From Shigella phage vB_SdyM_006: a stretch of DNA of 64,000 nt. Both the position numbers and the translations under genes were made by a program. The DNA is taken from the sequence record MK295204; one strand, written 5' to 3'. The notes under the pieces were generated by a model. That model did not search any database, was not told the origin of the DNA, and saw only the letters and a list, made by a program, of their open reading frames with translations. Each line of letters begins with the position of its first letter. Positions within the stretch are counted from its first letter, which is position 1. Shown here piece after piece: positions 1,080-35,562 of this stretch.

Positions 1080-2761
1080 TGTTCTTCTTTAACTGTAAAT
1101 CGGCCAACTTTATTCATTATAATATGTCTATCATAATCTTGTGGATTATGGTCACTATGAGAAATAATAAACACGTTATGATCTTCCATTGAATTAAGAA
1201 TTGACATGATTCCTTTAGAAGCCTCAGAATCCATACTACCATCAAAAACTTCATCTAAAAACAACGTTTTTATATTAACACCAGATATCATCGATGCAAT
1301 ATCATGCCATGTAAATAAAATTGCCGAATCAATTCTTGCCTTTTCACCTTCACTAAACGAAAAATAAGAAAATGTTTCTCGTCCACGAGAATTAATAGTT
1401 TCTACAAATTCTTCGTTTAAAGTGACTTGATAATCAGCACCTAATTTAGATAAATGTTTATTCAGTTGTTTATTAAACAAAGGAATATATTTAGAAATTA
1501 TGGCGCCTTTAATACCAGAATCTTTTAACATCTCTGTTAAAATACCTCTATGATATTTTTCCATAACCATATCGGTTTTAAGTTTAACAATTTTATCAAG
1601 ATCTTTTAGTAAAGCTTCGATTTTATCTGTGTTATCGATTTTTTCTTTTGATGCTTGCTCTATTGCTGAATTTAATTTATCAACATTGCTTGACGCCTTT
1701 AATATTGATTCTGTAATAGACCGGATTTCCATGTTCAGTTCAGAAACTTTTCGTTCTTGCTGTCTAAACATATCAAGTTTGTGTTCAACGTCTTTAGACA
1801 TATCAGAAAGCTTATTTAAGGCATTATCACACTTAGTAATAGATTCTTTAATGACTGGGACTTTAGACGTTCCTTGAAGTTCCTGCATACATGTAGGACA
1901 TGCACCACCTTTATCATATAATGATACAACTCGTGTGTAATTATCCTTTTCAGCCTTGACTTTAGAAATAGCTTGAACAATTTTAGTCATAGATAATTGT
2001 GGATTATCGCCTAAAACTATTTCTGATAATTGTTTTTGCAATTCTTCTATTTTAGCTTTACCTTCTTGTATTTCAGAAAGTTGTTTATCTTTTAATTCTT
2101 GGTACCGTTCAATATTAGCAGAAGACATTTTTTCTTGAGATTCTGCAAATTCTTTTTGGACCTTTAATTGGGCATCAATAGAATCTTTTTTAGTATCAAC
2201 AATAGCAAGCTTTTGATTTAATTCTCTGATGTAAGTTTTATTAAGTTTATCCATCACCCCTAATGTGTTTACATTTAAAAGGTCTTCTACTAACCTACGT
2301 CTTTCCGGGGTCTTTTGTTGCATAAAAGGAATAAAGCCTGCAGTACCAAGGACAATTGTATTTTTAAACGTTTCCATATTCATTCCAATCATTTGTTCAA
2401 ACTTTTCTTGGAAATCTTTTACAGAAGCATCTTCGTCTAAAGGTTGTCCATTAACTTGGATTTCAAATACAGTTGGCTTTTGTCCTCGTTTAACATAATA
2501 TTCATCAGAGCCGTATTTAAACCACAAGTCAACTAATAATTCTTTTTTATTAAATGTGTTAACTAATAAACCCTTTTTAATAGGTCTAAATGGTTTTCCG
2601 AATAATGCAAAACATACTGCTTCTAGCATAGTACTTTTACCAGCACCATTTTTACCTGTAATAAGTGTTTTATGGTGTTGGTCTAATGAAATATCAATAG
2701 GAGATTGTCCTACTGATAATATGTTTTTGTATTTTACTCTAATTAATTTAAATTCTTTCAT
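1076..2761 (-). CDS. 46: Recombination endonuclease subunit gp46 (SbcC/Rad50-like ATPase)
   Basis: 561 aa; N-terminal Walker A GKNGAGKST, long coiled-coil middle, C-terminal signature/D-loop region; adjacent to gp47. Confidence 0.9.
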   Translation of the reverse strand: MKEFKLIRVKYKNILSVGQSPIDISLDQHHKTLITGKNGAGKSTMLEAVCFALFGKPFRPIKKGLLVNTFNKKELLVDLWFKYGSDEYYVKRGQKPTVFEIQVNGQPLDEDASVKDFQEKFEQMIGMNMETFKNTIVLGTAGFIPFMQQKTPERRRLVEDLLNVNTLGVMDKLNKTYIRELNQKLAIVDTKKDSIDAQLKVQKEFAESQEKMSSANIERYQELKDKQLSEIQEGKAKIEELQKQLSEIVLGDNPQLSMTKIVQAISKVKAEKDNYTRVVSLYDKGGACPTCMQELQGTSKVPVIKESITKCDNALNKLSDMSKDVEHKLDMFRQQERKVSELNMEIRSITESILKASSNVDKLNSAIEQASKEKIDNTDKIEALLKDLDKIVKLKTDMVMEKYHRGILTEMLKDSGIKGAIISKYIPLFNKQLNKHLSKLGADYQVTLNEEFVETINSRGRETFSYFSFSEGEKARIDSAILFTWHDIASMISGVNIKTLFLDEVFDGSMDSEASKGIMSILNSMEDHNVFIISHSDHNPQDYDRHIIMNKVGRFTVKEEQ

Positions 2762-3810
2762 TATGAGTTAACCGATTCAACATGTAGGCTTAAGGCATAT
2801 TTAAATAATATTTCTTTTTCGTCTTCAGACAAGCCTTCTAATGCATTGATATATTCTCGAATGATAGTTTCTAAACTTTCAACAACAATATCATCAGAGT
2901 CATCAACTTCAGGTCCATCTGTAGCTACTTTAGAAACAACCTTTAATGAATGGACTACGGATTCTAATTTAGATTCAAATTCTGTAAATTTATCATCCAT
3001 TTTATTAACAATAACACGAACAGCGATATCTTTATAATCTTCAGGGTTAATATCTGAAGGATATTGAACACGTTGGTGCCACATTGTTTTATTTTGAACA
3101 AACTCTACACTAGAATCTTTAGGGTTAAATATCCATACACCTCTAGGGTCATCCTCATCGCCAGCAGTAATTGAATATGGAGTTCCAATATATAATACAT
3201 TACCAGCTTCAGAAATCGTATGGAAGTGGCCTGAATAGACTTTATCATATTTTTTAAGAAAGTCTGGTTCTAGTCCATGGGATTTCATTCCTTTATAAAA
3301 ATAAAATCCGTTTAATTCCCAATGTCCAATACATATTTTAGCATTAGACTTTTTAATATGGTCTAAAATCTCTTTAGTGTTTTCATCGCACATCCAAGGA
3401 ATTAAATCAATTAATGTTCCTTCTATTTCGACTGTTGTTGGTTTATCATAAATTGTTATATTATCATGTTTTGATAATAATTCCGAAACCGAGTTAGGAT
3501 GGATTTTATTTTTGAAATGTAAATCATGATTACCAATAATAACATGCAAGTTAATACCAGCTTCTTTAAGTAAATCCACATTTTCTCTACTAAATTCCAT
3601 TGTGACATGTGTAATGGCTTTACGTACATCGAACCAATCACCAAATTGAATAACTTCTGTGATTTTGTTTTGTTTACAAATTTCGATAATTTGTTTTATT
3701 GAATCTCTTTGGATATTTTGAATCCAAGGGTCGTCTTTAGCGACCCCATAATGTAAATCACCTACAAATAAAATCATCATAATATCCTTGTCAATTAAAA
3801 TTGATACCAC
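2761..3810 (-). CDS. 47: Recombination endonuclease subunit gp47 (SbcD/Mre11-like phosphoesterase)
   Basis: Calcineurin-like phosphoesterase motifs (GDLHYG, GDWFD, GNHD); true start probably internal Met (MILFVGDLHYG, near 3777). Confidence 0.9.
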   Translation of the reverse strand: MVSILIDKDIMMILFVGDLHYGVAKDDPWIQNIQRDSIKQIIEICKQNKITEVIQFGDWFDVRKAITHVTMEFSRENVDLLKEAGINLHVIIGNHDLHFKNKIHPNSVSELLSKHDNITIYDKPTTVEIEGTLIDLIPWMCDENTKEILDHIKKSNAKICIGHWELNGFYFYKGMKSHGLEPDFLKKYDKVYSGHFHTISEAGNVLYIGTPYSITAGDEDDPRGVWIFNPKDSSVEFVQNKTMWHQRVQYPSDINPEDYKDIAVRVIVNKMDDKFTEFESKLESVVHSLKVVSKVATDGPEVDDSDDIVVESLETIIREYINALEGLSEDEKEILFKYALSLHVESVNS

Positions 3811-6657: not shown

Positions 6658-6974
6658 TATTTAAATCCATTTGCACGTAATTTTTTATATTTACGAATAC
6701 CTTTTGTAGTAATTTCTGTAGGACCTTGGATATTAGGCTCGACACCAAATGCCTGAATACCAAAGTTATTTAGAATAGACTCTACCATAATTTCTCTAAT
6801 ACCTGTTTTAGAAATTTGGTGATGGTCTTTGTTAAGAGAGGAATGAAGCTTTTGTTCATGTATATCTAAAAATCTTGGAGTTACAATTTTATCTTCACTT
6901 AATAATTCTTCAGCGATAGGAAAAATATAATTTTTAATTTCATTGCGAAGTAACTTACTCATAATCATCTCCAA
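6657..6974 (-). CDS. Hypothetical protein
   Basis: 105-aa ORF translationally coupled to neighbours. Confidence 0.45.
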   Translation of the reverse strand: MEMIMSKLLRNEIKNYIFPIAEELLSEDKIVTPRFLDIHEQKLHSSLNKDHHQISKTGIREIMVESILNNFGIQAFGVEPNIQGPTEITTKGIRKYKKLRANGFK

Positions 6975-27377: not shown

Positions 27378-27637
27378 TTTATATCCTCTATAATTGAAAG
27401 AGTGTAATTAAGACTATATTTAAATTGTGTGGATTCACTCCATGAGACATCTCCTCGATATCCATACATAGTATCATAAACTATAAGAACACGGTCAGCA
27501 CCATTATCTAATAAAAAGCCATAATAAATTGTAAATTGACGGTCTTTAACACTATTATAGATATAGCAGTCTTTATATCCTAAAGTGGTTTTTATTTTTA
27601 AGGTGCTTCCAATTTCAATTACTAAATTAGGGTTCAT
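27368..27637 (-). CDS. Hypothetical protein
   Basis: 89-aa ORF. Confidence 0.4.
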   Translation of the reverse strand: MNPNLVIEIGSTLKIKTTLGYKDCYIYNSVKDRQFTIYYGFLLDNGADRVLIVYDTMYGYRGDVSWSESTQFKYSLNYTLSIIEDIKCI

Positions 27638-27897
27638 TTTCTTTTGGCCTTTATATAATCGTTTATATTTTCTATGCGTTCTAATTCTTTTTCTTTTTTA
27701 ATAGACCTGTAATTAAACACATATTTTATGCCTTCATAAATGAAAATCATAATAGGTATAACTACCATTACAGAACTACATAGTAAAAATATTTGTCCTT
27801 TATTAAAATCTTCTGATAAAGTCTCGTCAATTAGTCCGGATATTAAAACTGCTATGCATGACCACATAAGCCAGATTACTAAAATTGTCTCAACCAT
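27634..27897 (-). CDS. Small membrane protein (two TM)
   Basis: 87 aa, two hydrophobic helices plus a charged tail. Confidence 0.45.
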   Translation of the reverse strand: MVETILVIWLMWSCIAVLISGLIDETLSEDFNKGQIFLLCSSVMVVIPIMIFIYEGIKYVFNYRSIKKEKELERIENINDYIKAKRK

Positions 27898-28163
27898 TAT
27901 AAATGTCCTCGCTTAGAGTTAATGTATGTCTCGACTTCTCTTTTTGTACGGTCAAAAGCTTCTTTTTGCTCATATACTTCTTGAGATTTTTTATATTGCT
28001 TATTAGCATTGATTTCTTTATAATTAGCAGCATATACGTAAATATAAAAGGCCCAGACCATAGGACAAATCATGGATGTAAATTTAGTATAAAACGGTTT
28101 GTTTACAATAGGATATAAACACCAAAAGAAGAACGTAAATATAATATAATTAGCCCAAATCAT
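27897..28163 (-). CDS. Small membrane protein (two TM)
   Basis: 88 aa, aromatic-rich hydrophobic helices. Confidence 0.45.
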   Translation of the reverse strand: MIWANYIIFTFFFWCLYPIVNKPFYTKFTSMICPMVWAFYIYVYAANYKEINANKQYKKSQEVYEQKEAFDRTKREVETYINSKRGHL

Positions 28164-28639
28164 TTTGTGTCTCCTTTAATTTCATCAAGAAAGTCAAAAT
28201 AAGCGTTAGGATAAAACAATAGAATAAATGGTGTCATTGCTAGCCCAATAGAATACAATATCATACTCAATAAATCTGTAGAATAATGTATAAAGAAAGG
28301 CCAAACTATTAAAATATACATCATTATCATAAAAATAGTGTTCATCATATAAATATTGGACAATTTATGCGGTACACTGTAATACCCGTTTTGGTATCTA
28401 TTGTTATTATTACTTAATGAAATTACAATATCACCTACCGTCTCTTTATCGAAACCTAAATTTATTGTTTCAAACATGACAAAGAGTCCTAAAACTATAC
28501 AACTTATTAAAAATAATAATGAATATGCAAACCCTGCTCCTGTGTTTGCCCACATATCAAATGAGAACAATGTATTTCCAGATAACACAAGTAAAAATAT
28601 AAAGACAACTTTGTTGATTTGAGATAATAAATAATTCAT
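28160..28639 (-). CDS. Polytopic membrane protein (about four TM)
   Basis: 159 aa with four hydrophobic segments. Confidence 0.5.
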   Translation of the reverse strand: MNYLLSQINKVVFIFLLVLSGNTLFSFDMWANTGAGFAYSLLFLISCIVLGLFVMFETINLGFDKETVGDIVISLSNNNNRYQNGYYSVPHKLSNIYMMNTIFMIMMYILIVWPFFIHYSTDLLSMILYSIGLAMTPFILLFYPNAYFDFLDEIKGDTK

Positions 28640-29127
28640 AATTTTTTCCTACATTGCATAATATATTCTTCAAGAAAAGTTAATTTATTTTCCAGAACGT
28701 CTAAATATTCTTTTTCAAAATTAAAAACAAATTCAATAAGGTCAACATTAGTATTAAAGCATTTTCTATAAGATTCAAAAGATGAAAAATAATGTGCATT
28801 ATCTACGCCAACAAAAAAAGTAATGGCTATATCATCCTTTTTAAAACCAAATAACACATTTGATGATTTTAATGTATCTTCAATTTGGTCAAACTGTATA
28901 ATTGTTTTATTTTTGTCGTCTTTATAAGAAGTAGAATAACACCATATGGATTTAAATGGGTACACTATATCATTTAAAGAACAGTGATTCAACAAGATAT
29001 TTTTTATAGCATTAGCTTTAGCTTCAGGCATATTAAATAGTGGAATCACATAAGAAGTATCGCTTAGTTTTGAATATTTAGAAATAGGGTCTACTAATCT
29101 TAGTACTTCATTAAGCCATTGTTGCAT
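28636..29127 (-). CDS. Hypothetical protein
   Basis: 163-aa ORF. Confidence 0.5.
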   Translation of the reverse strand: MQQWLNEVLRLVDPISKYSKLSDTSYVIPLFNMPEAKANAIKNILLNHCSLNDIVYPFKSIWCYSTSYKDDKNKTIIQFDQIEDTLKSSNVLFGFKKDDIAITFFVGVDNAHYFSSFESYRKCFNTNVDLIEFVFNFEKEYLDVLENKLTFLEEYIMQCRKKL

Positions 29128-29177
29128 TATAACCTCCTAGTAAAATGGGCCTTTCGGCCCATTAATCAGTTTACTGA

Positions 29178-29774
29178 TTATTTGTTAAAAGTATCAACAT
29201 ATAATTCGAGTTCAGACATATTAACCGAAACATTAGAGCTTTCTGTAAATGTGTCAACTTCTGTAATAATAGTATCAACATCTACTAATACATGGTCTGT
29301 AGAAGCCATTACATCTTCAGGTAATTTGATACCTAATGCATCAGTTTCTTTGTTCAATTTAATAACTTCTAAATTAGCTTTAATTTCTTCTAATTTATCA
29401 GCAAGTTCAACAACTTTTTCTGCGATCGTAATAATAGATTTTTTACGATTTTCAACTTCGGTTTCTAAAGCTTCACCCAATTTTTTATATTGCAAAGCAG
29501 CGATAAAATATGCTTTTGGCACGGCTTGTTCTTTGCTTTTTAAGAGACGAATATGGTCTTCTTTTAGTTTACTGTTTTTAAAGTGGTCTTGAGCCTTGGC
29601 TTTTAAGTGCTCAATGCTTTGAGTTGCAGTAATTTCAGCATGACGTAAACTGTCAATTTTATTGATGATTAACGTCGCAGCTTGGGTATAACGTTCTTCA
29701 GCAGATAAATTGCTTTTGAAGAAAGAAGTTAATTTAGTAGATACGAAGTTTTTAGCAGTTTTTAATAAGCTCAT
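29178..29774 (-). CDS. Coiled-coil protein
   Basis: 198 aa, heptad-rich helical N-terminal two-thirds and acidic C-terminus; the plus-strand 29119-29592 ORF is its low-complexity antisense. Confidence 0.5.
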   Translation of the reverse strand: MSLLKTAKNFVSTKLTSFFKSNLSAEERYTQAATLIINKIDSLRHAEITATQSIEHLKAKAQDHFKNSKLKEDHIRLLKSKEQAVPKAYFIAALQYKKLGEALETEVENRKKSIITIAEKVVELADKLEEIKANLEVIKLNKETDALGIKLPEDVMASTDHVLVDVDTIITEVDTFTESSNVSVNMSELELYVDTFNK

Positions 29775-30025
29775 TTTATTTCCTTACATGTATTAGTTTC
29801 AAAATCAACAATAATATTTTTACGTTCAATGCCAAGATTAATTAATTTAGAAATACATTGACCTTGGATTTTTTGGTCTTCTAAACCTTTAGAAACACTT
29901 TTAGATAATGCACTCCATGAAAAACAAATAACTATTAAAATAACACATCCAATTAAATATTTCATGATATACTCCATTTGTTTTGATGTGTCTATAGTAT
30001 TATAGATTTTTTGTGTTGTAAACAT
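29771..30025 (-). CDS. Small secreted protein
   Basis: 84 aa; internal Met followed by signal-peptide-like MKYLIGCVILIVICFSWSALS. Confidence 0.4.
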   Translation of the reverse strand: MFTTQKIYNTIDTSKQMEYIMKYLIGCVILIVICFSWSALSKSVSKGLEDQKIQGQCISKLINLGIERKNIIVDFETNTCKEIK

Positions 30026-30031
30026 TTATTT

Positions 30032-30487
30032 TTAATTTTTTGAAATTAATTTTCGACATTGGTTTATGTATGCTTTGCGCTGGTTGTCCTCTAATTTTTC
30101 TAGATACGCAGCTTTTTGATCTTTAAAATTAACTAATCTTTCACTTATCTTATTAAATGTATCAGATTTAAGATAAAATACAGATCTTTTAGATTTAAAT
30201 TCAAAATAAGCTATAACAGTTCTTGACACATTTTCTCCTGGCTTCACTTGTGTCCTAGTACTTAATGGAAAATTCAAGTACATTGCAGCTGTGTATTCAG
30301 CCAAGAAGAAAGTCACTTTATCGACGTTATATAAGAGCCAGGACAATATATCATCTTCATTGATATATCTAAATTCAGATTCAATTAAAAGCCTATACCG
30401 AAGATCTGAGACTTGACATTTGCCAGCTTCATAAGAAGGCTCAAAACTTTCTGTGATGACAGAAAGTTCATCTAAATTATAATTCAT
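30032..30487 (-). CDS. Paralog family member 3 of 3
   Basis: 151 aa; shares the Y-x-A-x-Y-L-NFPL core, F-Y-L-x-x-D and a C-terminal Y-I-x-x-C-R-K/N-x-I motif with the two upstream ORFs. Confidence 0.5.
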   Translation of the reverse strand: MNYNLDELSVITESFEPSYEAGKCQVSDLRYRLLIESEFRYINEDDILSWLLYNVDKVTFFLAEYTAAMYLNFPLSTRTQVKPGENVSRTVIAYFEFKSKRSVFYLKSDTFNKISERLVNFKDQKAAYLEKLEDNQRKAYINQCRKLISKN

Positions 30488-30950
30488 TTAGAGATTCCTT
30501 TATTTTATTTCTACATGATTCAATATAAGCTAAACGTTCAGAAGTTTTGATGGCTTCAATAAATTTGGTTCTTTTATTTTTAAAATCGTCAAACTCAGAA
30601 TATACACTATTGAAAAAATCAGCATCTAAATATACTACGTATTTTTTGTCGTCAAGCATAAATTCAGCTATAACCATACTAGTATATTTTGGGGCTTTTG
30701 AGCCAAGATATATTTTATTTAAACCTTTTAATGGAAAATTCCCGTATGTAGCATACTCGTAGTCAGCGCAATAAAATCTAACAGAACTTACATTATGGTA
30801 CATCCAATTGACAAAGTACTTAGTATACTGTTTATTTTTTCTACGTAAATCAGCAACTAAATATCCTGCTTCTTCTTCATCAAATAATGCAATAAAGTCA
30901 AAATTATTTTTCATGGGTATGACCTTTAATTTTACGACGACATTTTTCAA
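30477..30950 (-). CDS. Paralog family member 2 of 3
   Basis: 157 aa; same motifs (NFPL, YVVYLDAD, YIESCRNKIK). Confidence 0.5.
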   Translation of the reverse strand: MKNVVVKLKVIPMKNNFDFIALFDEEEAGYLVADLRRKNKQYTKYFVNWMYHNVSSVRFYCADYEYATYGNFPLKGLNKIYLGSKAPKYTSMVIAEFMLDDKKYVVYLDADFFNSVYSEFDDFKNKRTKFIEAIKTSERLAYIESCRNKIKESLNEL

Positions 30951-31374
30951 TATAGAAGTCTAATTCATTGGTATACTTAGAATTTACATAAATTTGTTTA
31001 TTTTTACTAAAACCTGAAATACCTTTTAAAACACCTTTGGCTTGATTATAGTCTATAAAGAACACATGTTCTTTATTATCGTACATAAATCTTAAAGCAA
31101 AAGTATCTTTATAGATATTAGATTCTTTTGTAACGATAGAATTAGTAGATTTATCAAGTGGCAAATTACATGCAAGAGCACAAGTATACTCACACTCATA
31201 TAATGTCACATAATTTGTATTAGTATACAAAAAATCTAGAATCTCATCAGAGGTCCAAGCTTTCTCAATATCATTTCCTAGAACACGTAGTTTCCAAAAA
31301 GTGGATTGACGTATATCAGCCCAGATAACATTATTATCTTTGCCTGCTTCAGGTCCTTTAAAAATATCAATCAT
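30904..31374 (-). CDS. Paralog family member 1 of 3
   Basis: 156 aa; same family (CNLPL, VFFIDYN, YIEKCRRKIK). Confidence 0.5.
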   Translation of the reverse strand: MIDIFKGPEAGKDNNVIWADIRQSTFWKLRVLGNDIEKAWTSDEILDFLYTNTNYVTLYECEYTCALACNLPLDKSTNSIVTKESNIYKDTFALRFMYDNKEHVFFIDYNQAKGVLKGISGFSKNKQIYVNSKYTNELDFYIEKCRRKIKGHTHEK

Positions 31375-31664
31375 TATATCCTCTCACAAAAAGCCCAATT
31401 AGCATGATAAACTGAAGCGCCTTTAGTATCATTCATGCACACTAAGTCTACAGGAGACACCACTCTATATAAAACAGGTTCTCCACCTAATGAACGCGCA
31501 GCTCTTCCGGCATAAATTTTAGCCAAACCTAAATCTTCAGTAAAGAAAACTCGGTCTAAATTTTTCTTACGTCCTTTTTCAGAAATAGTCTCAGTTGTTT
31601 CTGGTGGAAGTAACATATGTTCAATACCACATACAGAAGAAGAACCATGATAAAAAGTTTTCAT
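31374..31664 (-). CDS. Possible Arr/Tpt1-like mini ADP-ribosyltransferase
   Basis: 96 aa; N-terminal FYHGSS and downstream R-V-F-F-T ... YRVV-P resemble the rifampin ADP-ribosyltransferase (Arr) core as I remember it; not verified. Confidence 0.4.
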   Translation of the reverse strand: MKTFYHGSSSVCGIEHMLLPPETTETISEKGRKKNLDRVFFTEDLGLAKIYAGRAARSLGGEPVLYRVVSPVDLVCMNDTKGASVYHANWAFCERI

Positions 31665-31732
31665 TATAGACTCCGTTTTTAAATTATGTAGCTATTATAC
31701 ACACAATTTTTAATTTGTACATACTATAAACG

Positions 31733-31754
31733 AAAAAAGGAACCAAAAGGTTCC
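31733..31754 (-). terminator. Hairpin GGAACC-UUUU-GGUUCC plus U6 on minus strand
   Basis: Read directly; after the stop of the 31762-32178 ORF. Confidence 0.45.
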
Positions 31755-31761
31755 TTTAATT

Positions 31762-32178
31762 TTAGATACATCCACCACAAGAACTATGTCGCCAATCTTC
31801 TTCGTTAATATGTGGATAAAGAGCATATAAGATTTTTTCGATATCTTTAAATCCATGTCTTTTTAAAGACGAAACTAATGAGTTAGTATCGTGTTTCAAC
31901 ATTAATTGGACCCAACTTTCTGGACTTAACCCTGCTGTATAAGAATCCCATTCTTCAGACCAATTATCGTCAAAACGCCAGGTGTCATAAGATTTACGTG
32001 TATCAAATTCTTCATTACCTAAACCAGTTAGGCTAATTCCATCGATACTAATATTCCATTGTCCAAAGCATAGCGTTGGATAAGACCCAGTCCACTCTAC
32101 AAAAATTTTCATGTAATTCCTTATAAACATACCACAATTGCAGTTAAAAATATAAAAACCATAACAGGAACATACCAA
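31762..32178 (-). CDS. Hypothetical cysteine-rich protein
   Basis: 138-aa ORF (real start may be the internal MKIFVEW); Trp/acidic-rich with C-terminal SSCGGCI. Confidence 0.4.
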   Translation of the reverse strand: MVCSCYGFYIFNCNCGMFIRNYMKIFVEWTGSYPTLCFGQWNISIDGISLTGLGNEEFDTRKSYDTWRFDDNWSEEWDSYTAGLSPESWVQLMLKHDTNSLVSSLKRHGFKDIEKILYALYPHINEEDWRHSSCGGCI

Positions 32179-32230
32179 ATGGTTTTTATAGCATCATTAG
32201 GTTTTTCTGAGTCAAACATGATAATCTCGA

Positions 32231-32584
32231 TTAATAATAAATAGTATTCCCAACATAAATTTTGTTTGGATTTGTAATATTATTTAAAATTTGTAAATAT
32301 TCAACAGACACGCCAAGGTTCATAGCAATTTCGCTCAGTGTGTCATTAAATCGTACTGTATATGAAAATAAATTTGAATCACGATTAATTGACGCAGTTA
32401 AAAAATCAACAGAATTCAGAACTTCAAAAGTCATCGCTTTGTCGTTGCCACTATTAAAGCCAATACCACGCTTAAGAATAGAAACGATAGTTGTACCTTC
32501 ACCTGTTTCAGAAGCACCGATGATGTTACGTGTATCAACCATAAAACGTGATAAATCATCTGCAGAAGTTAAAATAATTTTCAT
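32231..32584 (-). CDS. LysM-domain protein
   Basis: 117 aa; C-terminal YTVRFNDTLSEIAMNLGVSVEYLQILNNITNPNKIYVGNTIYY fits the LysM consensus. Confidence 0.55.
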   Translation of the reverse strand: MKIILTSADDLSRFMVDTRNIIGASETGEGTTIVSILKRGIGFNSGNDKAMTFEVLNSVDFLTASINRDSNLFSYTVRFNDTLSEIAMNLGVSVEYLQILNNITNPNKIYVGNTIYY

Positions 32585-32593
32585 AGTATTTCC

Positions 32594-32986
32594 TTACCAA
32601 GAATAAGCAAAACCTGCACCAAGAGTAGAATTAGATTTGTTATCAAATGCACCAGACATTTTTAATGTTACATTTGTGTTTTCTGGATGAGCACCAAAAG
32701 CGACAGCTACAGCTGAACCAGATTTATAACCACCAACACCTAAGCCTAAAGAAATGGTTTTAGAAAAATCTAATGGAACATTATTCATAGCAGAAGCAGA
32801 AGCAAATCCAGCTTTTACTTGGTCCATTTTTCCGTCAACATCTTTAATATATCTATTCCAGGATTCATTTACAGTTCCTTCGTGAAAAGTATGATTAAGA
32901 TTTGGACTAATCCAATTATTATCTGATGCAATTGAACCAGAACTCAAAACTAATAATGAAGCCATAAAAATAAATTTTAAATTCAT
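32594..32986 (-). CDS. Small outer-membrane protein with YadA-like (trimeric autotransporter) C-terminal anchor
   Basis: 130 aa; signal peptide MNLKFIFMASLLVLSSGSIA, then GLGVGGYKSGSAVAVAFG ... NVTLKMSGAF ... GAGFAYSW ending in a C-terminal aromatic, resembling the YadA anchor beta-strand pattern. Confidence 0.55.
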   Translation of the reverse strand: MNLKFIFMASLLVLSSGSIASDNNWISPNLNHTFHEGTVNESWNRYIKDVDGKMDQVKAGFASASAMNNVPLDFSKTISLGLGVGGYKSGSAVAVAFGAHPENTNVTLKMSGAFDNKSNSTLGAGFAYSW

Positions 32987-33127
32987 AATTTTTTCCTTGT
33001 TTGTTTAAAGTAGAAACACTATATCATAGATTATATAAAAGCTAAATTTCTTTTATTTTAAAAACAAAAAAGGTCCAACATTTCTGTGGACCTTAAAAGC
33101 AACTTCTTTTATTATTTATTTTAAATT

Positions 33128-33204
33128 TGGTACACCTACGGGAATTCGAATCCCGGTTACACGCTCGAAAGGCGTGGGTCCTAGACCACTAGACGATAGG
33201 TGCA
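33128..33204 (-). tRNA. tRNA-Glu (anticodon UUC)
   Basis: Manual fold: acceptor GCACCUA/UAGGUGU, anticodon stem CACGC with loop CUUUCGA, T-loop UUCGAAU, encoded CCA. Confidence 0.7.
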
Positions 33205-33210
33205 TTAAAA

Positions 33211-33302
33211 TGGAGGAGAGTATGGGATTCGAACCCATGGAACAGCGTAACTGTCCAACGGTTTTCAAGACCGTCTCAATAATCCATCTCTGACAACTCT
33301 CC
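33211..33302 (-). tRNA. tRNA-Ser (anticodon UGA), class II
   Basis: Perfect acceptor GGAGAGU/ACUCUCC, anticodon loop CUUGAAA, long variable arm, T-loop UUCGAAU, CCA. Confidence 0.8.
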
Positions 33303-33309
33303 AATATAA

Positions 33310-33627
33310 TTAAAACAGTAGACTATAAACAGTACCTTTACAATCTATAGGTTGTGTTTTTGAATATTCTTTAAATAGATTTAAATAACCAATTTCTTCA
33401 GGTTCCCATTGTCCTTCTAAACCATAACATGAACAATGTGAGCCGTTAACTTCCCAAAATATATCATTACTATCTTTGAAGATTACAGTAGCATACCCAG
33501 AATAATCTTCATAATCGTAATATGCTAAAATGATTTCTTTGTCATTAAGTGAATCCATAGGGATTTGGAATTCATGACAGATGTCTTCTTTTGAAGTAAA
33601 CAGTTCCATAAACACATTAGTTTTCAT
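33310..33627 (-). CDS. Hypothetical protein between tRNA genes
   Basis: ORF track gives 33310-33720, but the N-terminal part overlaps tRNA-Asp; trimmed to internal Met (about 105 aa). Confidence 0.4.
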   Translation of the reverse strand: MKTNVFMELFTSKEDICHEFQIPMDSLNDKEIILAYYDYEDYSGYATVIFKDSNDIFWEVNGSHCSCYGLEGQWEPEEIGYLNLFKEYSKTQPIDCKGTVYSLLF

Positions 33628-33650
33628 ATCAATATCCTCAAAATTAATTT

Positions 33651-33726
33651 TGGCGGTCTTACCGAGAATCGAACTCGGTGCTGTTCCGTGACAGGGAACT
33701 ATGTTAACCAGGTACACCATAAGACC
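33651..33726 (-). tRNA. tRNA-Asp (anticodon GUC)
   Basis: Acceptor GGUCUUA/UAAGACC, anticodon stem GUUCC with loop CUGUCAC, T-loop UUCGAUU, CCA. Confidence 0.8.
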
Positions 33727-33756
33727 TTAAAAATGTACCCATCCGGCTTTCCAGTC

Positions 33757-33857
33757 TGGTGAAGGGTTGTCACCTCTAGTTTAAACCTGCTAGTCAAGTA
33801 ATAATTGCATATCGTCCAATTATCAAAACCGTCTAGGTTATATTACACCACTTCCTA
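33757..33857 (-). ncRNA. Possible small stable RNA in the tRNA cluster (not foldable as a canonical tRNA)
   Basis: About 100 nt between tRNA-Asp and tRNA-Gly, begins with tgg (CCA-like 3' end on minus) and contains local hairpins; T4 carries small stable RNAs in the equivalent position. Confidence 0.2.
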
Positions 33858-33919
33858 GAATACCGTCTAAGCGGACTTGATCGACGTAGATTACACCATA
33901 TACGTCTGATTGTGGAATT

Positions 33920-33993
33920 TGGAGCGATCTACGGGTATCGAACCCGTATCTTCTGGGTGGAAACCAGAAATAATAGCCATTATACTAAGATCG
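33920..33993 (-). tRNA. tRNA-Gly (anticodon UCC)
   Basis: Perfect acceptor GCGAUCU/AGAUCGC, anticodon stem UCUGG with loop UUUCCAC, T-loop UUCGAUA, CCA. Confidence 0.8.
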
Positions 33994-34615
33994 CATATTT
34001 ATTAATAAATCTTCTTGCTTGGGTATGACTTAATCCTATATGTTTAGCAAATTTATTTAAGTTACCTCTTATTGAAATATCAAATGATTTTAATATTTCT
34101 AATCTATAATTAATTTCGTCTTTTGACAATGTAGAGGCATTATTAATAGAAATTTTGTTTTTAGATATATCCGAATGTCTCTTATTTTTAAAACCAAACG
34201 AATTTTTCTTTTTGCTAAAATCATATAATCCGAGTCTAAGTCTTTTCTTAAATGTATTAACTTGTTTACTTATAGTTAATTTAGATTTTGGCAATGAATT
34301 TATATAATCCCAACCACCTTCACCACCAACTTTTAAATTATATGTATTTTTGCTTTTAACAAATTTTTCTGTAACTATTTTGGCTTCATGTATAAACATG
34401 TCATACTTATTTTTATGAAATTTTAAAATAGTTTTTTCAAAATTTTCTTTGCCATATTTTTCTATGGCTTTTTTCAAAATCTTACCTGAACCAAAATATC
34501 CATCTTCTAAATCTTTGGTTTTATGAACACCTATATAAATTTTATTATTTATTTTATTTTTAATTTTGTATGTATAATAAAACATTATAGCCTTATTTAT
34601 CTTTTGGTACTCCAT
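33980..34615 (-). CDS. GIY-YIG homing endonuclease (seg-like) inside the tRNA cluster
   Basis: 211 aa; N-terminal YTYKIKNKINNKIYIGVHKT ... GYFGSG is a GIY-YIG motif; lysine-rich C-terminal DNA-binding region. Confidence 0.75.
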   Translation of the reverse strand: MEYQKINKAIMFYYTYKIKNKINNKIYIGVHKTKDLEDGYFGSGKILKKAIEKYGKENFEKTILKFHKNKYDMFIHEAKIVTEKFVKSKNTYNLKVGGEGGWDYINSLPKSKLTISKQVNTFKKRLRLGLYDFSKKKNSFGFKNKRHSDISKNKISINNASTLSKDEINYRLEILKSFDISIRGNLNKFAKHIGLSHTQARRFINKYAILV

Positions 34616-34779
34616 TCTTTATTAGTTGCTTTATTAACAGCAGTAGAATAAGAATTTTTAATATCTTCTGTAACAGAATAGCCAGTTAACATAGTAGAAA
34701 TTAAAATAACATATCCAAGCATTAATAAAATACAAGATAAAAATCCTGCAATAATAAGAATTGTACCTAAAGTAGTCAT
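34597..34779 (-). CDS. Small membrane protein (trimmed from the 34597-34890 ORF, which overlaps a tRNA)
   Basis: Internal Met yields about 60 aa with one long hydrophobic helix. Confidence 0.35.
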   Translation of the reverse strand: MTTLGTILIIAGFLSCILLMLGYVILISTMLTGYSVTEDIKNSYSTAVNKATNKEWSTKR

Positions 34780-34798
34780 ATTGTTCTCACAAATTATT

Positions 34799-34875
34799 TG
34801 GTGACCCACCATGGAATCGAACCATGCTCCAACGCTTATGAGGCGTTCGCTTTCAACCAGTAAGCTAGAGGGCCT
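34799..34875 (-). tRNA. tRNA with anticodon CAU (Met or Ile2-type)
   Basis: Anticodon stem AACGC/GCGUU with loop CUCAUAA, T-arm CAUGG-UUCGAUU-CCAUG, CCA; acceptor has one mismatch. Confidence 0.65.
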
Positions 34876-34882
34876 TGCAATT

Positions 34883-34966
34883 GGTGGCACCGGGTAGACT
34901 CGAACTACCGAAGGCCGAAGCCTGGAGATTTACAGTCTCCTGTCATTGCCGCTAGACTACGATGCC
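34883..34966 (-). tRNA. tRNA-Tyr (anticodon GUA), class II
   Basis: Anticodon stem GGAGA/UCUCC with loop CUGUAAA, long variable arm, acceptor GGCAUCG/CGGUGCC, CCA. Confidence 0.7.
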
Positions 34967-35011
34967 TTTTCTTATCAATAACGACTAAAAATAATCGTTA
35001 TTAATCAGAAT

Positions 35012-35088
35012 TGGTACACACTACTGGATTCGAACCAGTGACCTACGGTTTAGAAGACCGTTGCTCTATCCATCTGAGCTAAGCATGC
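35012..35088 (-). tRNA. tRNA-Arg (anticodon UCU)
   Basis: Anticodon stem ACGGU/ACCGU with loop CUUCUAA, T-loop UUCGAAU, CCA; acceptor stem has three G-U pairs. Confidence 0.6.
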
Positions 35089-35089
35089 A

Positions 35090-35380
35090 TTATAAGTACT
35101 GTTTAATCAGTTCTTCGTTATTTTTAAAAAGAATAAAAATATTATCACGAACTTCAGTATCTGAGATATGCCATTTCATAGCATCAATTAAAATGTCTTT
35201 TGGGATCATATTATATAAATTATTTAGTAAAGCAATATTATTTATATCAATATCAACTTCAAATAATTCAAAAATACAACACGAAATAGAATCATAAAAA
35301 TCTTTAATGTCTATTTCATACTTAGACAAATTATTTATAAATTCTGTTTTAGCTTGTTCTGGATTATGTGCTTTAAACAT
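35090..35380 (-). CDS. Hypothetical protein
   Basis: 96-aa ORF between tRNA-Arg and tRNA-Trp. Confidence 0.45.
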   Translation of the reverse strand: MFKAHNPEQAKTEFINNLSKYEIDIKDFYDSISCCIFELFEVDIDINNIALLNNLYNMIPKDILIDAMKWHISDTEVRDNIFILFKNNEELIKQYL

Positions 35381-35402
35381 TTTTATTCCTATTATTCTAA
35401 AA

Positions 35403-35477
35403 TGGCAGGCTCTGTAGGAATCGAACCCACGTCTTCGGATTTGGAATCCGGTATTCTACCGACTGAACTAAGAACCT
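35403..35477 (-). tRNA. tRNA-Trp (anticodon CCA)
   Basis: Anticodon loop UUCCAAA, D-arm UAGUUCAGUCGGUAGAAU, T-loop UUCGAUU, CCA. Confidence 0.7.
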
Positions 35478-35478
35478 T

Positions 35479-35562
35479 TGGCGGGCAGTGTAGGATTCGA
35501 ACCTACGTCGTCAAATGACACGGATTAACAGTCCGCTGCTTAATCCACTCAGCCAACTACCC
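35479..35562 (-). tRNA. tRNA-Asn-like (anticodon GUU) with an unusually long variable arm
   Basis: Anticodon arm CGGACUGUUAAUCCG is nearly identical to E. coli tRNA-Asn, but the variable region is about 13 nt (GUCAUUUGACGAC), giving 84 nt. Confidence 0.55.

Follow-up and report, generated by a model that had tools for sequence, protein, structure and literature searches.

Three diverged tandem paralogs of Shigella phage vB_SdyM_006 end in a C-terminal motif that recurs on unrelated proteins of the T4 e cluster

We analyzed a 64,000-nucleotide stretch of the genome of Shigella phage vB_SdyM_006 (sequence record MK295204; referred to below as the window), a phage whose host of isolation is Shigella dysenteriae (PMC7925395), and within it an array of three consecutive related genes, copies A, B, and C, whose products are deposited in GenBank as hypothetical proteins. 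The window has a G+C content of 30%, and its first ~42 kb are coded nearly all on the minus strand. The array region is 95.9% identical to that of Proteus phage phiP4-3 (Straboviridae, Bragavirus). A preliminary description of this DNA had reported three consecutive overlapping open reading frames (ORFs) of 156, 157, and 151 amino acids, and all three are present on the minus strand between positions 30032 and 31374. Each encoded protein ends in a motif that we call the CR-tail, a class named in this analysis rather than a published family and defined as (F/Y/W)(I/V)xxCR on a predicted helix, no more than about 14 residues from the C terminus. The genes and their tails are as follows.

30904-31374, minus strand: copy A, 156 amino acids (AZV01250.1, vBSdyM006_113), with a GAGG Shine-Dalgarno sequence
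30477-30914, minus strand: copy B, 145 amino acids from the ATG at 30914 (AZV01249.1, vBSdyM006_112)
30032-30487, minus strand: copy C, 151 amino acids (AZV01248.1, vBSdyM006_111)
30937-30954, minus strand: CR-tail YIEKCR, residues 141 to 146 of copy A, followed by 10 residues and the C terminus
30510-30527, minus strand: CR-tail YIESCR, residues 130 to 135 of copy B, followed by 10 residues and the C terminus
30053-30070, minus strand: CR-tail YINQCR, residues 140 to 145 of copy C, followed by 6 residues and the C terminus

The ORF of copy B is open further upstream to a TTG at 30950 (30477-30950, 157 amino acids), which is the form first described. The start is most likely the ATG at 30914, giving 145 amino acids, because an AAGG Shine-Dalgarno-like sequence is found there and none is found at the TTG; thus, the reported coordinates were right but the middle protein is likely shorter than was thought. 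The 145-residue form also agrees with both GenBank records, AZV01249.1 and gp262 of phiP4-3. Copies A and B overlap by 11 nucleotides (ATGAAAAATAA), copies B and C overlap by 11 nucleotides in the same form (ATGAATTATAA), and the stop codon of the preceding gene, g96, overlaps the start of copy A by 1 nucleotide (TAATG). A, B, and C are real, cotranscribed, and translationally coupled genes.

In pairwise BLASTP comparisons, the three proteins matched one another over ~105 residues with 26 to 34% identity (E values of 4e-11 for A/B, 3e-20 for B/C, and 2e-12 for A/C), and each matched phrog_16787, a group of unknown function, over nearly its full length (9.6e-55 for A, 1.3e-51 for B, and 2.7e-46 for C). 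The conserved blocks from which paralogy had been proposed survived a proper multiple alignment and are kept in 8 to 10 family members: A, N, and P are invariant in the (E/D)Y..A...N(F/L/I)P(L/F) block, the V(F/V)(F/Y)(I/L) strand is conserved, and Y, C, and R are invariant in the YI..CR.K(I/L) motif. The N termini, which had been described as divergent, largely are so, but they contain a (W/V)xD(I/L)R motif that was missed earlier and in which D and R are invariant. Ten family members with 22 to 35% identity keep the same invariant residues. At the DNA level, the longest similarities between copies are stretches of 29 to 40 nucleotides with 73 to 76% identity, and because only such short stretches are left, the duplications are ancient. 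A recent duplication or gene conversion is ruled out, as there are no long DNA repeats between A, B, and C.

Each of the three proteins has an alpha/beta body without recognizable relatives; a long C-terminal helix comes after it and finishes with (F/Y)(I/V)xxCR. The AlphaFold2 model of a family member is confident, and in the model of copy B the C-terminal helix is predicted to span residues 111 to 144. A Foldseek comparison of the copy B model with a 158-residue protein of Morganella phage MP1 (assumed from its length to be gp109) gave a weak match (probability, 0.99; TM-score, 0.46). The proteins are soluble, ~17 kDa, and near neutral, and no signal peptide or transmembrane segment was found in any of them, which rules out secreted or membrane proteins. 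DNA-mimic or antirestriction proteins are ruled out by isoelectric points of ~5 to 8.4 and a net charge near zero.

When the six-frame ORFs of the window (41,158 residues) were searched with the strict pattern [YFW][IVLM]xxCR, only four sites were found, and these are the tails of A, B, C, and a nearby gene, g163. With a background of about 1 match per 90,000 residues, ~0.02 tail matches would be expected among the genes of the window compared to the 4 seen; the four CR-tails are far beyond chance. The preliminary description had missed that the motif is shared with unrelated neighboring genes and with e.2, e.3, and e.5 of phage T4. These neighbors, together with the last gene of the operon that contains the array, are the following.

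29178-29774, minus strand: g198, homolog of e.6 of T4 and RB69 (phrog_1203), last in the operon and encoding a long helical protein
28636-29127, minus strand: g163, a soluble protein of 163 amino acids in the e.5 position, ending ...EEYIMQCRKKL and sharing only the tail module with A, B, and C
27634-28639, minus strand: g159, g88, and g87, small membrane proteins, counterparts of T4 e.4/e.3/e.2

By synteny, g198 corresponds to e.6 (both match phrog_1203) and g163 occupies the e.5 position, and upstream of e.6, A, B, and C add further genes for soluble proteins with the tail. Both marks of the class, the position of the motif on the helix and an e.6 homolog in the same operon, are found for all three copies. 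We ruled out g163 as a fourth full paralog, since only its last ~29 residues align with the family (BLASTP, 0.025; family hidden Markov model, 0.043; hhalign E value, 4.9e-4 over 29 columns with a probability of 32%). The three membrane proteins end in variant tails (...FLDEIKGDTK in g159, ...TYINSKRGHL in g88, and ...DYIKAKRK in g87).

A census of the motif gathered 26 tails from eight phages. In MP1, six of seven consecutive genes end in a CR motif, and their products include both membrane and soluble proteins (...DYVKHCRGK, ...DFVDECRRR..., ...SFVEKCRGKK, ...SYIKQCRGKK, and ...NYIKHCRGE). The tail is also present in e.2, e.3, e.5, and ORF133c of RB69; in e.3 and e.5 of T4, where e.4 has a variant and an e.2 tail is stranded in a short ORF; in genes 114, 118, and 120 of Klebsiella phage JD18; and in ORF055c of Aeromonas phage 44RR. 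Gene 259 of Cronobacter phage leE has the variant FIHSCKK. The early region of RB69 outside the e cluster (50 kb) contains one internal match, in DexA. Across the 26 tails, Cys and Arg are invariant, the motif lies 1 to 14 residues from the C terminus and is followed mostly by K/R residues, and hydrophobic residues at -3, 0/+1, +4, and +8 fall on one helix face. The Arg is encoded by AGA/AGG in 17 tails and by CGN in 9, and the Cys is encoded by both TGT and TGC. Because these codon families are mixed, the constraint is on the protein and not on the DNA; a DNA-level motif, such as a recombination linker or ribosome-binding site, is ruled out by the mixed codons and by the distance to the stop, which varies from 1 to 14 codons. 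In profile-profile comparisons between tail-bearing families, only the tail aligns (11 to 29 columns). Since these alignments cover the tail alone, the CR-tail is a separable module on otherwise unrelated bodies. The genes that carry it are neighbors of the conserved e.6 gene.

T4/RB69 e.5 (phrog_2607; relatives with PF26876 in a precomputed table) is, like A, B, and C, a soluble conserved hypothetical protein of the e cluster, and its C-terminal helix ends in F(I/V)xECR, after which comes a short basic stretch (T4 e.5, ...EKFVKECREYVKAITIPSK; compare copy A, ...FYIEKCRRKIKGHTHEK). In contrast, there is no detectable similarity between A, B, or C and e.5 outside the tail: BLASTP and hhalign aligned 10 to 19 columns at a probability below 2% (16 to 19 columns with E values of 0.026 to 0.035 for the family profile in hhalign), and a PHROG search gave no hit of A, B, or C to phrog_2607. 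In addition, e.5 is ~200 amino acids long, single copy, and directly downstream of e.6, whereas A, B, and C are ~150 amino acids long, in tandem, upstream of e.6, and found only in Bragavirus. T4/RB69 e.2, e.3, and e.4 (phrog_2203, phrog_2330, and phrog_2604) belong to the same cluster and have comparable ends (...EFVIDCRKIK in e.3, ...RFITECRNLR in RB69 e.2, and the variant ...FVKESRCK in e.4); unlike A, B, and C, they are predicted to be membrane anchored with 1 to 3 transmembrane segments and have no alpha/beta body, and their counterparts in the window are g87, g88, and g159. We also observed that T4 (AF158101) contains, at 6773 to 6934 between e.2 and nudE, an unannotated 53-codon ORF ending in ...NLNNFITECRKLK, which matches the tail of the full-length RB69 e.2 (163 amino acids), while the annotated T4 e.2 (102 amino acids) is without a tail. 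As the tail sits in a separate ORF and is absent from the annotated gene, T4 e.2 looks split or frameshifted in this record.

With 1201 phage records, e.6 is the most widespread member of the cluster. Its immediate downstream neighbor bears a tail in T4, RB69, JD18, vB_SdyM_006, and 44RR and a variant tail in leE; in 44RR and leE, the pair of e.6 and tail gene has been relocated beside nrd genes. In Morganella and Providencia phages, gp108 and gp109 (phrog_32882; MP1 locus 2120-3096) are a tandem pair of ~160-residue soluble proteins with the tail ...DFVDECRRR(L). They differ from A, B, and C in being a separate family (hhalign aligned 12 tail columns only), in lying downstream of e.6, and in belonging to a different genus. 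In this sister genus, a tail-bearing family has undergone its own, independent expansion in tandem.

The A/B/C family itself is restricted to Bragavirus phages. A profile search of 1.84 billion representative proteins returned five family proteins, all from Bragavirus (three phiP4-3 orthologs, one protein identical to SJ_190 of phage SJ_PmiM, and one identical to gp112 of phage Pm5461), and a homolog search of proteins returned the phiP4-3 ortholog as the sole match. A tblastn search of 50,697 phage records found the family only in phiP4-3 (3 copies), Pm5461 (2 copies), and SJ_PmiM (2 copies), and a search of IMG/VR found nothing beyond phiP4-3 itself, two 44-residue matches having been discarded as spurious. 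Copy number in related phages therefore varies, with 3 in vB_SdyM_006 and phiP4-3, 2 in Pm5461 and SJ_PmiM, and 0 in MP1, where the flanking genes are kept and the array is missing. The array lies directly after g96 in all four Bragavirus genomes. The tandem paralogs are genuine, as had been proposed, and they lie in an accessory region, the hyperplastic e-to-tRNA region of T4-type phages. No Pfam, NCBIfam, PADLOC, or PDB sequence match was found for A, B, or C, and the family is not a structural protein, the identity that the preliminary description had set against its own proposal.

Because synonymous sites are saturated between paralogs at 22 to 35% protein identity, we took the ratio of nonsynonymous to synonymous divergence (dN/dS) from ortholog pairs; with 2 to 4 orthologs per slot, these ratios are gene-wide. 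An identity matrix separated the family into two clades, one containing A, Pm5461 gp113/SJ_190, and Pm5461 gp112/SJ_191 and the other containing B and C. The two-copy and three-copy phages carry different combinations of these paralogs, so the array has a birth-and-death pattern. Compared to phiP4-3, the DNA of A and B is 87.7% and 91.6% identical, respectively, whereas the flanking genes are 98 to 99.5% identical; dS is 0.42 for A and 0.32 for B (flanks, ≤0.07), and dN/dS is 0.20 and 0.14, respectively. Since dS is also high (0.32 to 0.42), the divergence of A and B marks a patch of alleles acquired by mosaic exchange and kept under purifying selection, and it is not the product of accelerated positive selection. 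When Pm5461 is compared with SJ_PmiM, both family members show a dN of 0.16 to 0.18 and a dN/dS of 0.37 to 0.39, as against a dN of 0.004 to 0.035 and a dN/dS of 0.02 to 0.12, at similar dS, for four of six neighbors; the remaining two are gp111, with a dN of 0.093 at saturated dS (1.17), and gp110, with a dN/dS of 0.47 over 64 codons. The family proteins change several-fold faster than most of their neighbors, yet they are under purifying selection. The earlier term "diversifying" holds for this faster protein change but not for positive selection, as no ortholog pair reaches a gene-wide dN/dS of 1 (0.14 to 0.39).

We also observed a second mosaic patch at 27634 to 28639, where the DNA of g87, g88, and g159 is 88 to 92% identical to that of phiP4-3 (dS, 0.21 to 0.32) and the genes on both sides are 98 to 99.6% identical. 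Although described in print as a phage of Shigella dysenteriae, vB_SdyM_006 is ~96% identical to phiP4-3, a Proteus penneri phage, and all other Bragavirus members were isolated on Proteus. A, B, and g87 to g159, the most divergent accessory genes compared to phiP4-3, are candidates for host-specific functions.

The operon containing the array sits between nudE and tRNA genes. Its other genes and signals are the following.

31736-31757, minus strand: terminator-like hairpin closing the upstream unit, a 9-bp stem with 4 GC pairs, then a T run
31694-31721, minus strand: early-type sigma-70 promoter-like site TGTACA-16-TATAAT, a consensus match only (10/12)
31374-31664, minus strand: g96, 96 amino acids (phrog_2110), highly conserved, first gene of the unit
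29771-30025, minus strand: g84, a small predicted membrane protein with the hydrophobic segment YLIGCVILIVICFSWSAL
29147-29160, minus strand: terminator-like GC-rich hairpin GGGCCGAAAGGCCC followed by ATTTT, read from the sequence

As a hairpin and a promoter-like site precede g96 and a GC-rich hairpin follows g198, the transcription unit is g96-A-B-C-g84-g198, from the promoter-like site to the terminator-like end. The hairpin at 29147 to 29160 was absent from the output of a terminator scan of positions 28000 to 33500, and a terminator is annotated at the same place in Pm5461. For g84, we found weak PHROG matches only. No T4 late promoter (TATAAATA) was found on the minus strand at 28000 to 32300, and judged by these signals A, B, and C are apparently expressed early. 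A T4 middle-promoter-like site lies inside copy A at ~31101 on the minus strand (MotA box TTTGCTTTA, 12 nucleotides, and GATAAT; a consensus match only), from which B, C, and the genes after them could be transcribed separately.

The explanation that we favor, with somewhat less than even confidence, is that the CR-tail serves to dock variable heads on a single conserved partner, for which e.6 at the inner membrane is the best candidate, and that the triplication diversifies the heads. The tail would be one side of an amphipathic helix through which all the tail-bearing proteins attach to a common partner on the cytoplasmic side of the inner membrane. This would most likely be the cotranscribed e.6 homolog g198, which may be a scaffold of the PspA/IM30 type, or else a conserved host protein. 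Host-directed activities specific to each lineage would reside in the variable bodies, and these might be counter-defense, control of envelope or membrane stress, or exclusion. The three copies would then be alternative heads for one platform, kept and exchanged since hosts differ. A tandem orphan array in a T4-type hyperplastic region is ordinary by itself, and what this one adds is the shared tail, which ties it to T4 e.2, e.3, e.4, and e.5, to which no function has been assigned since the genome was annotated, and to e.6. A short invariant C-terminal motif on very different proteins is a concrete and cheap experimental handle that is usable in T4. If the tail docks, the e cluster is a case of modular effector recruitment in a model phage, and the Bragavirus triplication shows its repertoire diversifying between phages of different reported hosts (Shigella dysenteriae versus Proteus).

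A more specific proposal, which we regard as improbable, is that the tail is a docking peptide that recruits interchangeable membrane and soluble effectors (T4 e.2 to e.5; A, B, and C) to e.6 as a PspA/ESCRT-III-like scaffold. If this were true, the T4 e cluster, present in >1000 phages, would be a modular system of membrane remodeling or protection whose effectors were expanded by tandem duplication in Bragavirus. On the strength of a collinear but sub-threshold profile alignment, g198/e.6 may be a phage-encoded PspA/ESCRT-III-like protein; our search of open-access papers found none on T4 e.2 to e.6 or on a phage PspA.

Several observations weigh against docking to e.6. The tail could instead be a relic of common ancestry that is packed into each fold. 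The Cys position is occupied by Lys in g87 and g88 and by Ile in g159, and because these membrane members have lost the Cys, it is dispensable in some contexts. The conserved slot downstream of e.6 is held by g163, whereas A, B, and C lie upstream of e.6. A six-sequence e.6 profile was collinear with PspA/Vipp1 structures (1-141 versus 1-142) at sub-threshold E values of 0.025 to 0.08 and with strongly biased composition, and e.6/g198 gave no Pfam hit, PspA_IM30 included. In addition, the alignment behind the structure model contains 8 sequences only.

A serious alternative, though a less probable one, is that the paralogs are stand-alone counter-defense inhibitors, each blocking a different variant of host immunity or toxin, as Dmd, TifA, and AdfA do, with the tail as a structural remnant. 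Such a role would fit the early-type signals, the small size and solubility of the products, their fast evolution, the changing copy number, and the restriction to one lineage, as well as the position of A and B in one of the two patches of this region most diverged from the Proteus penneri phage. In RB69 and Mosigvirus, the g96 ortholog (ORF040c) is directly upstream of dmd and overlaps its start, so that it heads the RB69-type "anti-TA island" (TA, toxin-antitoxin) dmd-tifA-adfA (Srikant, Guegler and Laub 2022, PMC9391042), and tandem amplification of an anti-defense gene readily arises in T4 (PMC9391042). Like the dmd-tifA amplification of that study, the array arose in a T4-type phage by recombination that multiplied small early accessory genes in tandem; unlike it, the tifA amplifications being recent, identical, and laboratory selected, A, B, and C are ancient, with 22 to 34% identity, and have no homology to Dmd, TifA, or AdfA. 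More broadly, no homology of A, B, or C to any known defense or anti-defense protein was found (Pfam, NCBIfam, PHROG annotation, and PDB), and the host-interaction or anti-defense role suggested in the preliminary description gained no direct support. There is also no dmd, tifA, or adfA homolog in the window to anchor the analogy; when RB69-type dmd, 61.2, and neighboring proteins were compared with the window, only g96 and imm matched. Gene-wide dN/dS below 1 likewise speaks against an inhibitor role, which would moreover leave unexplained why the same tail is found on membrane proteins and unrelated soluble proteins from Aeromonas phages to coliphages.

The position of the motif, 1 to 14 residues from the C terminus on an amphipathic helix with mostly K/R residues after it, might instead indicate a sorting or turnover signal, either a ClpX-type basic degron or a membrane-targeting amphipathic helix, by which the proteins would share a fate or location and not a partner. 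The ClpX signal of MuA and the membrane-targeting helices of MinD and FtsA are C-terminal and basic. We consider such a signal unlikely: the invariant Cys-Arg and fixed register suggest specific recognition and not generic amphipathicity, members that are already membrane anchored would need no membrane-targeting helix, and no known degron fits the motif.

The constant position of the array directly after g96, with the 1-nucleotide stop/start overlap in the window, raises the question of whether the paralogs act with g96, which some depositors have labeled an ADP-ribosyltransferase, as its substrates (with Cys/Arg as acceptor), regulators, or immunity proteins. It is typical of immunity genes to lie as tandem paralogs downstream of a toxin-like gene. 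However, g96 ranks among the best-conserved small genes in T4-like phages, with 609 phage records at ~70 to 78% identity, from Escherichia to Aeromonas and Acinetobacter phages, and nearly all of these are without the A/B/C family. Its genome position varies; in RB69 ~46 kb separate it from the e cluster and its tails, and in MP1 other genes come after it. Because g96 mostly occurs without the family and, in RB69, lies far from the e cluster, a functional link to it is very unlikely. The reading of g96 as an Arr-like ADP-ribosyltransferase comes from the depositors' label and was confirmed by no sequence method: no Pfam, NCBIfam, PADLOC, or PDB sequence match was found, even with a 28-sequence profile, and g96 is not listed in the Aravind-lab survey.

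Least credible is the view that the three copies are decaying or without function, neutral ORFans of a hyperplastic region, for although the family is tiny, absent from close relatives such as MP1, and relatively high in dN/dS, no copy is disrupted in any of four genomes, Shine-Dalgarno sequences and coupled junctions are present, the ratios of 0.14 to 0.39 are well below 1, the invariant residues are kept in ten members at 22 to 35% identity, and the predicted AlphaFold2 fold is confident.

Three further features lie upstream of the operon. At 32594 to 32986 on the minus strand, a 130-residue protein has a signal-peptide-like N terminus and a YadA-like anchor domain (PF03895; E value of 2e-12, above the Pfam cutoff); it is 100% conserved in phiP4-3 and looks like a minimal trimeric-autotransporter anchor in a T4-like phage. 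At 32231 to 32584 on the minus strand, a 117-residue protein has a C-terminal LysM domain (PF01476; E value of 1.2e-10) and no catalytic domain. A cluster of nine tRNAs (Glu, Ser, Asp, Gly, Met, Tyr, Arg, Trp, and Asn) occupies 33128 to 35562 on the minus strand, with a SegE-type GIY-YIG homing-endonuclease gene at 33980 to 34615 between tRNA-Gly and tRNA-Met. The corresponding site of phiP4-3 carries a small ORF, tRNA-Pro, and a gene for a membrane protein, and a homing event probably replaced the tRNA-Pro.

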